A DNA stretch of 64,000 bases. Source: an uncultured Candidatus Saccharibacteria bacterium. GTDB taxonomy: Bacteria; Patescibacteriota; Saccharimonadia; Saccharimonadales; Saccharimonadaceae. Under the pieces are notes generated by a model that saw only the letters and a list, made by a program, of their open reading frames with translations, had not been told where the DNA came from and made no database searches. How positions within the stretch are numbered: the first letter of the stretch is position 1; the number at the start of each line of letters is the position of its first letter. Position numbers and translations under genes: made by a program. Shown piece after piece: positions 22,998 to 28,821 of this stretch. The stretch is from assembly GCA_964639835.1 (NCBI GenBank), contig CAZXEG010000001.1, positions 1,223-65,222 on the forward strand, written 5' to 3'.

Positions 22998-25337
22998 GTG
23001 AAAGTCATACATACAAAATTTGGTTATCGCTGGGTAGCGAAAGTGCTGGGAGGCTGTGGGATGCTGGCGCTTTGTGCGCTGGGCGTGCTGGAGGTGCTTG
23101 GTGGTGGCAATGCTTATGCTACGAACATGGACTTTTCGATCAATGTCAGGCCTTCTGCTAGTATTACGGTCCCTTCTAACCCGGTGAATTTGTCTATTAA
23201 CCCTGGGAGTAGTGCCTTTAGTTCTGCTACACTGAATATAGAAGCTGGGACTAGCTATGATAATGGCTATACTATTATTATGCAATCCGGTCATAATGCT
23301 AGTGAGATTAGTAACTATAATCTTGTTAATACTACTGATTCTAGCTCTGTAATTCCTATGTTAACTACTACTTATACGGAAGCCAACTTCCCTGCTAACT
23401 ATTGGGGAGTAAAAGTAGGTAGTGGTAACTATGGTGGTATCGGTACTAATGGAGCCATCACTTCTACCAATACTAAAGGTGGTAGTACTGTACCAGTAAC
23501 TCTAGCTGCTAAAGTAGACTATACTAAACCAGCTGGTGATTATACTACTACACTAAACTTCTCCATTGTAGCTAATGTAGATAGTAGTGCTAGTATCACT
23601 AACTTTACCTACATGCAAGACGTTGCAAATCTCTCCTCTACCGAAAGACAGGCAGTAGTAGATGGCATGGTAGAATCAAAGACCTATACCCTAAAAGATA
23701 GCCGTGACCAGCAAGATTATACCATCGCCAAACTTAAAGATGGAAAAGTGTGGATGACGAAGAACTTAAATCTGGCTGGTGGCACTACCCTAACTTCTGA
23801 TGATACTGATATGCCAAGTGGTTATGCTTTGCCTACTGCTAATGGATTCCAATCTGGCAATAAACTCCCAGCTTCGGAAACCATTTCAAGCGGTACTACG
23901 CTGGCAAATAGTTCAGCATTTAGTGACAATGCCACCGCGTATGTTTTTAATAGCAATAACACTACTTGTAGTTCATCCTCGCCTTGTTATAGCTATTATT
24001 CTTGGGCTACTGTTACCCTTGGCTCCGGAACGGGGGTCAGTACGGATGGCGAGGATGTTCCTTATAGTATCTGCCCGAAAGGCTGGAGGTTACCTACATC
24101 AGGCAACCAAATCACCGACAATGCCAATAACTGGAAAAAAGGCGACCTCTATGCCCTCGGCACTGCATACGGGGCCAACTTGGAAAACAGCTACTACGAT
24201 AACTCCGTTACGACTGGCGCCAACTTCTATAATAATGCCGGGCCGGACGCCACCGTACCGAACTTTTTACCTGCAGGCAACTATTATTCTAGTTTGTTTG
24301 ACTATGGTGGTGACTATGGACTATATTGGTCATCCACTGTTAGTTCGTCTACCAGCGCATACAATCTTCACTTCACTTCCAGCAATATGGATTCAGCCGT
24401 AAGTAGTGATCGTAGTACCGGCAGGGGGGTTCGTTGTATATTGGACGCAAACGCGCCGACGATTGAGGATCTTGGAACGATGCAAGATTTTGCTAGCCTC
24501 GATACCTACGACAAGCAATCCGTCGTAAATAGCATGGCTATGGAAACTAATTACACTTTGAAGGACAGCCGCGACGACCAAGATTATACCATTGCCAAGT
24601 TGAAAGATGGTAAGGTCTGGATGACTAAGAACCTAAACCTAGCTGGCGGTACGAAGCTTAACTCTACCACTACGGATATGGCGGATGATTACGTGATGCC
24701 AACTGCAAATGGGTTCCAGGCCGATAATACCTTGCCAGCTTCGGCTACCAAGAATACGGGCGACAATAACCTGACTGATAGTACTCAGTTCAACATTAAT
24801 ACTATGGCGTACGTATTTAACTCTGGTACTACATCGGGTTGTGGTGCGAGTGGGCAGAACGTGCCTTGCTATAGCTACTATTCCTGGACGGCGGCGACAC
24901 TTGGCTCTGGCGTAGACATTTCGGCTGATGGTACGAGTGCGTCTTATAGCATCTGTCCGAAGGGCTGGAAATTGCCAACTGCGACGACAGAAGATGTCTC
25001 GCGAGACAATGGTGGCTACACCGGTGGTGATTTCTACAAGCTGATTATGCCTTATATGAATGGCGCTACATCGCTTAACCGAGGCTACTATGACAATACT
25101 AACCCGAATCCATTTACTACGAATGCTGGTCCTGGCACGCTTGCGTCGTTCCTGCTCGCCGGCGGCTACAATACCGGCTTGCTCTACAATGGAGGTTCCA
25201 TCGGCGACTATTGGTCTTCTACTTCTAGATCTGCTACCTTTGCCTATAGTCTCACTTTCCTTTCTGACGTCGTGTATTCAGCCAATATCGCTTATCGCGC
25301 CGTCGGTAGCTCTGTTAGGTGTATGCTCGCGGATTAG
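22998..25337 (+). CDS. Surface protein with two Fibrobacter succinogenes major paralogous (FISUMP, CLec-fold) domains; candidate DGR target
   Basis: Duplicated YTLKDSRDxQDYTIAKLKDGKVWMTKNLNL, CPKGWxLP, YWSST...VRC; GTG start after AGGAGG. Confidence 0.85.
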   Translation: MKVIHTKFGYRWVAKVLGGCGMLALCALGVLEVLGGGNAYATNMDFSINVRPSASITVPSNPVNLSINPGSSAFSSATLNIEAGTSYDNGYTIIMQSGHNASEISNYNLVNTTDSSSVIPMLTTTYTEANFPANYWGVKVGSGNYGGIGTNGAITSTNTKGGSTVPVTLAAKVDYTKPAGDYTTTLNFSIVANVDSSASITNFTYMQDVANLSSTERQAVVDGMVESKTYTLKDSRDQQDYTIAKLKDGKVWMTKNLNLAGGTTLTSDDTDMPSGYALPTANGFQSGNKLPASETISSGTTLANSSAFSDNATAYVFNSNNTTCSSSSPCYSYYSWATVTLGSGTGVSTDGEDVPYSICPKGWRLPTSGNQITDNANNWKKGDLYALGTAYGANLENSYYDNSVTTGANFYNNAGPDATVPNFLPAGNYYSSLFDYGGDYGLYWSSTVSSSTSAYNLHFTSSNMDSAVSSDRSTGRGVRCILDANAPTIEDLGTMQDFASLDTYDKQSVVNSMAMETNYTLKDSRDDQDYTIAKLKDGKVWMTKNLNLAGGTKLNSTTTDMADDYVMPTANGFQADNTLPASATKNTGDNNLTDSTQFNINTMAYVFNSGTTSGCGASGQNVPCYSYYSWTAATLGSGVDISADGTSASYSICPKGWKLPTATTEDVSRDNGGYTGGDFYKLIMPYMNGATSLNRGYYDNTNPNPFTTNAGPGTLASFLLAGGYNTGLLYNGGSIGDYWSSTSRSATFAYSLTFLSDVVYSANIAYRAVGSSVRCMLAD

Positions 25338-25346
25338 CGGGCAGTA

Positions 25347-25414
25347 GATAATTACCTCCCCGGTACCCACAAGTTCCGACCTCAACGCTTGCGGGTGCCG
25401 GAGAGGTAATTATC
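25347..25414. other. 27-bp stem-loop just after the FISUMP stop
   Basis: GATAATTACCTCCCCGGTACCCACAAG / CTTGCGGGTGCCGGAGAGGTAATTATC, 14-nt loop, no U-tract. Confidence 0.75.
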
Positions 25415-25494
25415 CGGTGGTAGCGCAAGGGGTTTACAATTTGGGGTTTTGGTGGTAGAATTAAGAGAAGTTAAAAGTAGAAAAAGGAAACTAA

Positions 25495-26172
25495 ATGGCT
25501 GAGTATAAGTTGACGCTAGAGAAGCGTGAGATAACAGGCAAGAAATTAAAGGGGCTAAGAGCGGAAGGGATGATTCCGTCGGTGGTGTACGGAGATATCA
25601 AGCCGACTTTGGCGATGAGTGAGTACGTGGCGACGGAGAAGGTGCTGCTTGGTGCAGGGTATCACTCCCCGATCGATCTAGACATCGCAGGGAAGAAGCA
25701 ACTAGCAATCGTAAAAGACGTGCAGGTTGACCCGGTGACGCGGAAGATCGTTAACATCGAATTCCAGGCGGTCTCGGCGAACGAAGCAGTGGTGGCGACG
25801 ACGCCAATCGTGATTGTGAACTTTGAAGCATCGGAAGCGTCGAAACTTTATCACTTTGCGATGACGCAAGCGATAGAGGAGATCGACGTAAAGGCGAAGC
25901 CGGCGGATCTACCGAAAGAGCTTGAGGTGGATGCAGGATTCATGAAGGATGTGGATGATAAGATCGTAATTGCGGACATTAAGCTACCGAACGGGGTGGA
26001 GCTGGCCGATAAGGAGCTCTTCGCAGAGCAGGTGGTAGCATCGCTCTACGACCCGGCGGCAGAGGCGGCGGCGCGGGAAGCCGAGAATGAAAAGCCAGAG
26101 GTAGAAGCGGCGGATGTGCCAGCAGAAAACGGTGCGAAACCGGAAGAGAACAAGGAAGCTTCGCAAGAGTAG
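25495..26172 (+). CDS. rplY: 50S ribosomal protein L25 / Ctc
   Basis: REITGKKLKGLRAEGMIPSVVYG, VQVDPV, IEEIDVKAKPADLP, acidic tail. Confidence 0.92.
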   Translation: MAEYKLTLEKREITGKKLKGLRAEGMIPSVVYGDIKPTLAMSEYVATEKVLLGAGYHSPIDLDIAGKKQLAIVKDVQVDPVTRKIVNIEFQAVSANEAVVATTPIVIVNFEASEASKLYHFAMTQAIEEIDVKAKPADLPKELEVDAGFMKDVDDKIVIADIKLPNGVELADKELFAEQVVASLYDPAAEAAAREAENEKPEVEAADVPAENGAKPEENKEASQE

Positions 26173-26197
26173 TAAAACAATTATAGTGTTGTAAAAA

Positions 26198-28048
26198 TTA
26201 CAACACTATAGTATTAGCGATGAGCCTGTCAAGGAAAGCTTGGCGGGCTTTTTCGAGGTTATTGTCGGCCCCTTGCCAGAGGTCAAGCGAAGGCTCCTTC
26301 AGGGCGCGGGCAAAGGAGAAGGAAATGGGCCAGGGATAAGGGCCACTTGCAATAATAGCGGCGAGGTTTTTGGTGGCTTGGTCGGGAGTTTGACCGCCAG
26401 AGAGGAAGACGACGCCGGCGAGATCTTCGGGGACGTGGGCGCGGAGGACTTCGGAAGTGGCGTGGGCGACTTCGTCGGGTGTGGAGGGCTCGTCGTAGGC
26501 TTTGCCGGCGAGGATCATGTTGCATTTCAAGATACAGGCTCTTAAATTAACTTCGTAGGCGCGGAGGGCTTCGAAGAGGTTATCGAGGACGACTCCGGTG
26601 ACGGTAGCGCAGAGTTCGATGGGATAATTGCCATCATAAGACACTTCTGGTTCGACGATGGGTACAAGGCCAAAGGTTTGGCAATCTTTGGCAAATTCGG
26701 CGAGGCGACGGCAGTTTTCGCGGATGGCGTCTTCGGTAGGAGTGAGAATTTGGCCGTTTTCGCCGAGGGTAATGTTGAAACAGGCGCGCCATTTGGCGAA
26801 GCGGAGGCCCATTTGGTAATATTCGCGCAGGCGGGCGGGGAGGGAATCAAGGCCGTCGGTGTAAGTTTCGGAGGAGTTGTTGAAGGGGACGAGGCCTTGG
26901 TCGACCTTGATGCCAGGGATGATGCGGTGGCCAGTGAGGTAGTCGGGGTAGGTTTGGCCGGCGGAAGTGTGGTCGCGGGCGGTTTCGTCGAAGAGGATGA
27001 CGCCGTTAACGTATTGGTTGAGGTCGTCGAGAGTAAGGAAAATGTCGCGATAGGCGTGGCGATGCCGAAAATCGTTCGGGATGTGGAGCTTTTCGAATTG
27101 CTTCTTGATGGAGCCACCGGATTCATCGGCGGCGAGGATGCCTTTGCCTTTTAGCATGAGGCTTTTTGCGACGAGCTCGAGGTTGCCCTTGGAAGCGTGA
27201 AGGACGAGGTTTTCGAGCTCAGCGTAGTTAAGAGTGGAGCTCAAGGTGGAATGCTCGACGTTGACGCGGGCCATGCGGAGGCTGTACTCGACGGTTTTGC
27301 CGAGGATGAAGCCACCGAGGATGGTGGCGCTAATGATGGAATAAGCACTGAGGTGGGTGAGGGTATTGATGCGTTCGATGGAAACGTCTTCTCTGATGGA
27401 TTGGTAGGCTAAGTGGTCTTCGGCGATGGTGATGATGCGATCTTTTGGGAAGTCTTTTAAAACGCTAGGCATGGATGTAAGCGCGGTTTGATATTCCGGC
27501 CTTTTAGGCGGTTTTTCGAGGAAAATGAGGCTGGCGCGACGAATCAGGCCGGTGAGGATGAGGTTGGTTTGGTCCTTGAGATAGAGGATAAGCTTGACAT
27601 CCTTTGCGTAACTGAGGTAGGCGTTGATGCGGTCGACGACCTGAGGGGTGAGGTTGGCAGAGCGGTCGATGTAGAGATAATCGATGGGCTCGGTCGGGGT
27701 GGCGAAGAGGGATTTTTCGGCGATAGAAGGGGTGAAGTAGGTGACGCCGTTTTCGGTAGTCAAGATGTAGCGGTGAGTGGAAACTGGGGCGGTCGGGACT
27801 GGGCCGGTGGCGTCGAAGTGGAAATCGGTTTCGGAAATGGCGGTTTCTAACCCCATTTTTTGGAGAACTTCTAGAGTGATGGCGGCGCCACCGAAATTGC
27901 TAGTGCGGTTGAAAAAGTGATGCTCGCTGGCGTCGAAACTGAGGTCGAGCCAGTCAATCTGACGGCTGTCGGCTTCGATGTTTTCGGTTCTTTCGTCGAT
28001 ATTTAGATATACGTCTTTGATGACGTTGCCCACTACTAAGATCTTCAT
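26198..28048 (-). CDS. Degenerate PfkB-like domain fused to class I fructose-bisphosphate aldolase
   Basis: N-term ILVVGNVIKDVY..GGAA; C-term KGILAADES, GIKVDQG, FAKWR, PIVEPE, ILKCNM, FLSGGQ, SFSFARAL. Confidence 0.88.
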   Translation of the reverse strand: MKILVVGNVIKDVYLNIDERTENIEADSRQIDWLDLSFDASEHHFFNRTSNFGGAAITLEVLQKMGLETAISETDFHFDATGPVPTAPVSTHRYILTTENGVTYFTPSIAEKSLFATPTEPIDYLYIDRSANLTPQVVDRINAYLSYAKDVKLILYLKDQTNLILTGLIRRASLIFLEKPPKRPEYQTALTSMPSVLKDFPKDRIITIAEDHLAYQSIREDVSIERINTLTHLSAYSIISATILGGFILGKTVEYSLRMARVNVEHSTLSSTLNYAELENLVLHASKGNLELVAKSLMLKGKGILAADESGGSIKKQFEKLHIPNDFRHRHAYRDIFLTLDDLNQYVNGVILFDETARDHTSAGQTYPDYLTGHRIIPGIKVDQGLVPFNNSSETYTDGLDSLPARLREYYQMGLRFAKWRACFNITLGENGQILTPTEDAIRENCRRLAEFAKDCQTFGLVPIVEPEVSYDGNYPIELCATVTGVVLDNLFEALRAYEVNLRACILKCNMILAGKAYDEPSTPDEVAHATSEVLRAHVPEDLAGVVFLSGGQTPDQATKNLAAIIASGPYPWPISFSFARALKEPSLDLWQGADNNLEKARQAFLDRLIANTIVL

Positions 28049-28056
28049 ATATATTA

Positions 28057-28821
28057 TTATATCACACCTAAAATTCCGCGCAAGGCATAAGCGGTGTCTT
28101 CGTGGGAGCGGACGGTGATGGTGTCGATGCCCATCTGAACGACCGGGTAATCGTTGCCACCGGGGGCGGTCATGTCGCCGAAATAGAGGATGTCGGACTT
28201 TGCGACGTGGAGCTCCTCTAGGAGGTGGGTCATGCCGAATTCTTTGTTCATGCCAGGGGTGATGGCGTTAATAGAGGTAGTGCCGCCGATTTCGTAGTCA
28301 AACTCGGGGGCCTTTTCTTTGGCGAGGGCGACGATTTTTTCGCGTTTCTTGCAATCGGGGTCCCAAGCGTATTTGGCTTCGGTGCCGGCATGCTGGCCAA
28401 GGGCGGAAAAGGTGACTTGGGAGAGGCGGTTTTCGATGATTTCGTCGCCTGCTGCGAGCTGGTCGGCCTCCCAGAAGCCGAGCTCCTTGGCGGCCTCTTC
28501 GAGGGCTTGGCTGATTTTGGCGACTTGCTCGTCGGTTAAGGGGTAATTATAGACCTGGACCCAGTTATTTGTGGTAGTGTCGTACTTGTAATACTGAGTG
28601 CCCTGAGCGACGAAAAGGTGGAGATGGCTGAGCTGCTTTGGAGTGGGGTGAGGCAAGCGGTCGACGATTTGGATGAGGAATTGGTCGAATTTTTGCCCGG
28701 AAATAGGACAAATCTCGAAGTGGTCGAGACATTTGGTCAATAATTCTGCCATGTCGTCGTCGATGGGGGTTTTGGCGATGTTTAAGGTTTGGTCAATATC
28801 AAATGCTAGAACTTTTTTCAT
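28057..28821 (-). CDS. HAD-IIB hydrolase (phosphomannomutase-like)
   Basis: AFDIDQTL, ISGQ, IENRLSQVTFS, GGTTSI, YFGDMTAPGGND; start at MKKV. Confidence 0.85.
   Translation of the reverse strand: MKKVLAFDIDQTLNIAKTPIDDDMAELLTKCLDHFEICPISGQKFDQFLIQIVDRLPHPTPKQLSHLHLFVAQGTQYYKYDTTTNNWVQVYNYPLTDEQVAKISQALEEAAKELGFWEADQLAAGDEIIENRLSQVTFSALGQHAGTEAKYAWDPDCKKREKIVALAKEKAPEFDYEIGGTTSINAITPGMNKEFGMTHLLEELHVAKSDILYFGDMTAPGGNDYPVVQMGIDTITVRSHEDTAYALRGILGVI

Follow-up and report, generated by a model that had tools for sequence, protein, structure and literature searches.

The window analysed in our study was a stretch of 64,000 nucleotides (contig C1, positions 1223-65222; contigs are designated here by C and a number) from a Saccharibacteria assembly of 745 kb (0.75 Mb), which comprised 53 contigs and was 94% complete. 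The window contained a gene encoding a surface protein, followed by a long hairpin and the gene rplY (Table 1). The protein was found to contain a signal-like N-terminal segment, followed by the presence of an N-terminal domain of ~200 aa and two Fib_succ_major (FISUMP) domains. The databases' version of the gene starts from M22 (position 23061) and encodes 758 aa. The preliminary description of this DNA had assigned the gene to the FISUMP family, and the profile search agreed with it: PF09603 (Fib_succ_major) matched in 2 stretches with E = 2.4e-16 and 61 bits against a cut-off of 33.9, so that the profile score lay above the curated threshold for PF09603 / TIGR02145 membership. The translated C-terminal region read AGGYNTGLLYNGGSIGDYWSSTS...SSVRCMLAD*, which confirmed the peptide pattern given there. 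A promoter-like site was found by a promoter scan at 25433-25461, ahead of rplY. No reverse transcriptase (RT) was found within the 64-kb window.

Table 1. Coordinates of the features described in the text (window positions, unless a contig is named).
Feature	Coordinates	Strand	Basis or remark
Surface-protein gene	22998..25337	+	ORF and translation; 779 aa counted from GTG
Gene-conversion-like tract, N-terminal domain	23183..23651	+	25 clustered SNPs vs strains L005, L035
Internal VR-like module, end of first FISUMP domain	24264..24443	+	older; no adenine-site signal
Putative recombination block	24633..24930	+	sliding identity 83-97% to live C3 target gene; one 60-nt window 73%
VR-like C-terminal module, 62 codons and stop	25149..25337	+	ungapped TR_C3 alignment, adenine-site mismatches, codon table
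3' sub-segment, most TR_C3-like	25260..25337	+	low non-adenine mismatch
Long conserved hairpin	25347..25414	+	26-28 bp stem, 12-14 nt loop; intergenic, before rplY
rplY, ribosomal protein L25 gene	25495..26172	+	Pfam label; downstream neighbour
C3 DGR	TR = reverse complement of C3:28846-29109; VR C3:26212-26475		mismatches at adenines 22/25
C12 DGR	TR C12:17088-16793; VR C12:14108-14403		repeat screen
C36 DGR	TR C36:1977-2254; cognate VR C36:4926-4649		repeat screen

The closest paralogues of the surface-protein gene were found on C24 (74% identical) and C8/C27 (71% identical), and the N-terminal parts of the three were nearly identical. The gene was also a paralogue of the target of the diversity-generating retroelement (DGR) on C3, with an amino-acid identity of 53-62%. 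The second FISUMP domain gave a confident structure model (pLDDT 96.3), whose best matches in a viral structure library were phage proteins annotated as Fib_succ_major (E = 7e-5). The fold search of the PDB with this model (Foldseek) gave no match at E <= 0.001, the best being 0.44, and a sequence search of the PDB returned nothing. Because no solved structure matched, the C-type-lectin (CLec2) label of the domain rests on the literature (PMC5758913).

The preliminary description had pointed to the rest of the genome for an RT, and three DGR cassettes were found there, two of them active across strains. The genome contained four RVT_1 matches. Three were DGR-type RTs of 392-439 aa, and these adjoined pairs of template repeat and variable region (TR/VR) on C3, C12, and C36, as found by a genome-wide repeat screen for mismatches biased to one base. 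The three cassettes (C3:24857-29109, C12:12196-17088, and C36:1977-5522) shared a common order: a target gene with its VR, an ORF of 300-373 aa, the RT, and the TR. The ORF between the target and the RT gave no family match in any of the three. The TR was present directly 3' of the RT in each cassette, with its adenine-bearing strand antisense to the RT and the target. Copies of TR_C36 with near-adenine-only differences were found on two other contigs, C16:12227-12406 (1 non-adenine mismatch) and C50:1351-1541 (8 non-adenine mismatches), and these are candidate true remote targets. The copy on C16 was unchanged in the two other assemblies where it was found, a number too small to be informative on variation. 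The fourth RT (C7:10500-12080, also L003:781-2361; minus strand, 525 aa) adjoined RNase Y. It was rejected as a missing DGR, having only weak Drt4-like and group-II-like matches and no TR nearby.

The end of the surface-protein gene was rich in codons ending with C or T. As claimed in the preliminary description, exactly 48 of the 55 codons from 25158 to 25322 were of this kind, the highest share among all runs of 55 codons in the gene, against 480/724 (66%) outside this region (Fisher p = 9e-4). A C/T-ending bias of 0.70-0.84 was common to the three TRs of the genome and nearly all of its ~26 VR-like modules; one module had 0.55. The C-terminal module aligned with TR_C3 over 189 nt without gaps and with 70% identity. 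The mismatches were found at 29 of the 54 template adenines and at 27 of the 135 other sites (OR 4.6, p = 1e-5). At all 18 AAY codons of TR_C3 the module contained NNY. Positions 1 and 2 of these codons were changed in 22/36 cases (61%), and position 3 in 3/18, always from C to T. The scaffold codons of the module had the opposite pattern, with 14/90 changes at positions 1 and 2 and 17/45 at position 3. The residues of the module at the AAY-aligned positions were all reachable from AAY. Among 61 family members, the entropy was 3.07 bits at the 18 AAY-aligned positions and 1.15 at the scaffold positions (p = 5e-9). The excess of C/T-ending codons is thus present because the module carries NNY at template AAY codons, and this codon pattern is, judging from the alignment, what adenine-directed mutagenesis of an ancestor left behind.

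The same bias could also have been produced without any DGR, if the module were an ordinary lectin-domain paralogue in which composition, codon preference, and selection account for the codon usage. The C/T-ending fraction of the gene as a whole is already 66%, the bias may be ascribed to a composition of Gly/Ser/Tyr/Asn together with the preference of the gene for T-ending codons, and diversifying selection alone would vary the binding-site positions among paralogues. The internal module, which closes the first FISUMP domain, could be cited on the same side, since it carries no adenine-site signal: its mismatches to TR_C3 were found at 23/51 adenine and 43/126 non-adenine sites (p = 0.18), and no enrichment at adenine sites was found against any TR of this genome. 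The preliminary description had attributed a similar NNY bias to this internal domain; 42 of its 56 codons (75%) ended with C or T, which was not significantly above the background of the gene (p = 0.2), and this part of the description is weaker. The internal module was unchanged in the five assemblies that covered it (5/5). Composition and selection would still leave unexplained the nucleotide collinearity of the C-terminal module with the TR across 189 nt, a third position that stays C/T at 18/18 AAY-aligned codons next to variable first and second positions, the reversal of this pattern in the scaffold, the restriction to residues reachable from AAY, and the occurrence of the same pattern in the live VRs of the genome. 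We therefore consider an origin of the module without any DGR to be quite improbable.

Relatedness to a DGR does not make the module a target that is still rewritten. Since cDNA copied from the template replaces the sequence of a live target, few non-adenine differences between the two are expected. The whole assembly was scanned for compatible templates, where each base of a candidate was the same as in the module or A. The best candidate was TR_C3, with 27 incompatible (non-adenine) sites among 56 mismatches. The preliminary description had expected a repeat with mismatches almost only at template adenines, and no such TR was found in the assembly. No better template was found in 40 related genomes, where TR_C3 of the own genome was still the closest, and a scaffold-specific pattern, with N at the adenine and hypervariable positions, gave 0 hits in metagenome_contigs and 0 in genome_contigs. 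In the DGR survey, non-adjacent targets were assigned only if the differences were A-to-N, minor exceptions aside, and the largest number of non-A-to-N differences in an accepted target was 11 (PMC5758913). The module, with 27 such differences, should therefore not be a live target.

The non-adenine mismatches to TR_C3 were unevenly distributed along the module. They affected 23/84 non-adenine sites of the 5' part and only 4/51 of the final 78 nt (Fisher p = 0.007). The last 33 coding nucleotides (25305-25337) matched TR_C3/VR_C3 at 30/33 positions, and the closest paralogues on C24 and C27 differed there. This arrangement speaks against a module that is no longer rewritten, since in a remote target one would expect just such a TR-like 3' end of the coding sequence followed by a hairpin. 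It is a ground for regarding the module as a live remote target that is rewritten rarely or conditionally, either from an unassembled TR or from TR_C3 on its 3' part only. The order of the elements (a VR-like module, a TR_C3-like end, the stop codon, and the hairpin) and the 3' gradient agree with this, and DGRs are known to home with a partial 5' boundary (PMC5758913). With 94% completeness and 53 contigs, the assembly could lack a fourth cassette. On the other side, the cognate C3 pair has a TR-VR homology of ~75 nt after the stop codon, in which its mutagenised tract ends, and this homology was absent after the gene in the window; the count of non-adenine mismatches and the lack of a compatible TR in the assembly, the 40 relatives, and the two public collections also speak against it.

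The comparison of strains weighed further on this question. The module was fetched from ten further assemblies by means of the exact L25 protein, which is encoded 158 nt downstream, and together with strains L005 and L006 twelve assemblies were available. The module had 0 differences in 12/12 assemblies, as read from consensus sequences of near-clonal strains of one project, in which low-frequency variants are invisible. One of the twelve was a strain 0.9% diverged just downstream, and its module was still identical. The twelve included three samples in which the C3 VR was rewritten (ERZ28019072, SAMN15829916, and SAMN15829904) and one in which the C12 VR was rewritten (SAMN15829910). In these four matched samples, 13-18 residues of the C3 or C12 target were changed, all of them inside the VR: the three C3-target variants had 13-15 amino-acid substitutions each, all in residues 458-511, and the C12-target variant had 18, all in residues 644-697. 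The C3 region of strain L023 served as a control. Compared with the genome of the window, it contained 24 variable sites in 13.1 kb, of which 20 were present within the 170-nt VR, and 19 of the 20 differences between this VR and its TR were found at adenines. Strain differences within the gene of the window fell elsewhere, in the tract of 25 SNPs at 23183-23651 and a few singletons. Fragmentary strain variants were sought with the C-terminal domain as the query, and nothing above 62% identity was found. The tips of the paralogues on C24 and C27/C8 were equally invariant across strains. True VRs were likewise identical across many samples, which leaves some room for rare rewriting. The invariance of the module in the very samples where the C3 or C12 VR had turned over makes live rewriting highly improbable. 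Thus, of the "DGR-like variable region" proposed in the preliminary description, the relatedness to a DGR stood, by the collinearity with TR_C3, the adenine-enriched mismatches, and the NNY at all AAY codons, and the live target did not; the further proposal of a remote target diversified in trans was not supported, in view of the missing adenine-only TR in the sequence searched and of the invariance in twelve assemblies, including the four with changed VRs.

The stem-loop that had been described as 27 bp starting 10 nt after the stop codon (25335-25337) was confirmed, with 26-28 pairs. Its predicted fold had -49 kcal/mol (z = -3.7) and was equalled by 0/200 shuffles. Homologous hairpins were present after the paralogue genes at C24:6278-6313 and C27:7541-7607, so that the hairpin was kept only after three paralogue genes (window, C24, and C27), with 28 pairs of which 3 were compensated. 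No Rfam family was found for it, the only hit being at chance level, and no T-tract terminator was present at the hairpin. A dispersed mobile element or repeat was also considered and rejected, as the short matches were unrelated coding sequence. The motif AATTAC(C)TCCC was found to open the post-stop hairpins of the window (25350-25361) and of four C36-type modules (C7:16883, C9:814, C16:12419, and C50:1346). Seven sites of this motif were present in the genome, and 5/7 followed VR-like modules.

The hairpin probably serves the 3' end or the stability of the RNA and came down with the group of three paralogous genes. It could instead be a DGR target-recognition cruciform. [quoted passage not shown] The hairpin is, however, far longer than the DGR inverted repeat, which is GC-rich, whereas its outer stem is AT-rich. 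It was present only after three paralogous genes, all with invariant tips; no equivalent was found at the true C3 VR, and such inverted repeats are known in only 34% of DGRs (PMC5758913). A role in the 3' end or stability of the RNA is therefore more likely than one in homing, and a recognition cruciform is unlikely.

The genes of this family were found to have mosaic identity profiles. The genome contained ~26 VR-like modules in 21 open frames, with a total of 37 kb (5% of the 745-kb genome), and the non-adenine divergence of the modules from their nearest TR was continuous, from about 1% to 35%. The gene of the window was 93-100% identical to the C24 paralogue at 24468-24590. The block at 24633-24930 resembled the live C3 target gene, and its flanks were only 40-70% identical to that gene; the tip was closest to TR_C3/VR_C3, and directly after the stop codon the sequence reverted to a C24/C27-like one. 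The block points to a recent recombination between the live target and the frozen paralogue, and the mosaic profiles show that the lectin-tip genes exchange blocks by homologous recombination. In its variant form, the tract at 23183-23651 resembled the C24 paralogue (96.6%) more than the window (95%), which suggests a gene conversion in the N-terminal domain; the 4.7 kb of L005 that follow the tract contained no SNP. The 3' gradient of mismatches in the module would fit two origins alike: partial homing at an earlier time, or gene conversion by a former allele of the C3 VR. In strain L039 (SAMN15829919), the comparison with the window over 24770-28284 gave 31 SNPs, all from 25830 onward. The final 570 nt of the lectin gene contained no SNP, and neither did the hairpin or the start of rplY. 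The SNP pattern of L039 suggests a recombination boundary inside rplY.

Taking these results together, we consider that the C-terminal module is a frozen paralogue of a DGR target, of DGR-written ancestry but no longer rewritten, with a probability of about 0.78. The ancestry signature and the strain invariance beside changing live VRs were observed, and no compatible template was present in any of the sequence searched. On this reading, a FISUMP protein that is secreted or surface-bound would bind its ligand with the module as its tip. The module would have a common origin with the TR and VR of the C3 DGR, descending from a DGR-written variable region in which adenine mutagenesis of AAY template codons would have left the NNY codons. 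The matching template may later have been lost, or was perhaps never regained. Drift would then have changed about 20% of the non-adenine sites, and the module would now be inherited as an ordinary fixed sequence, one of ~26 tips in 21 genes that exchange blocks by homologous recombination. The writing may have happened in the gene itself, or the tip may be a copy of a live VR that arrived by duplication or gene conversion. A tentative and rather doubtful extension of this scheme has two tiers, where the live DGR VRs write tips and recombination among the ~21 paralogues stores useful variants in template-less copies. The gene of the window would then remain able to take up tips again through its TR-like 3' coding end and its conserved hairpin after the stop codon. 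The 3' gradient and the mosaic blocks common to this gene and the live C3 target are compatible with two tiers and are no proof of them.

The contrast of live and frozen DGR-type tips was found inside one genome and one sample, with the RTs and templates present and active. A codon signature with partial TR homology is therefore insufficient to call a remote target, and annotation by an identity threshold alone (e.g. >= 50% to a TR) would call too many trans targets. The 0.75-Mb genome of a Saccharibacteria member devotes about 5% of its DNA to lectin-tip genes, presumably for the attachment to host bacteria.

Tips of the Fib_succ_major type are an established class of DGR targets, known as CLec2 / category 'd' with DUF1566 and DUF823, to which LdtA of Legionella belongs (PMC5758913). 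The module resembles this class in being Fib_succ_major with a C-terminal variable tip that ends with ...VRC..., and in the AAY-rich templates of its genome; unlike the described targets (PMC5758913), the copy in the window is invariant and without an adenine-only template, the nearest TR having 27 non-adenine differences. Paralogues of DGR targets with remnant TR-VR homology are known in cyanobacteria as 'VP homologs' and 'remote VPs', among them all3226 of Nostoc (PMC7517822). With 70% identity to TR_C3 over 189 nt in a paralogue of the C3 target, no adenine-only pairing, and no RT in the window, the module is a further member of this described class of remnant DGR-target paralogues. As in the cyanobacterial remnants (PMC7517822), a dispersed paralogue of a DGR variable protein has no RT nearby and contains a TR-like segment at the 3' terminus of the ligand-binding domain. 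The threshold of >= 50% identity used in that study (PMC7517822) would label the module a remote target, which our data do not support. The host here differs from the cyanobacterial ones in being an epibiont with a genome of 0.75 Mb and ~26 modules, and the domain is FISUMP and not of the cyanobacterial CLec class; also unlike that study (PMC7517822), the non-diversification was tested here directly against the live VRs of the same samples. The cyanobacterial remnants were read as variants kept after diversification had ended (PMC7517822), and we propose the same reading for the module in the window.
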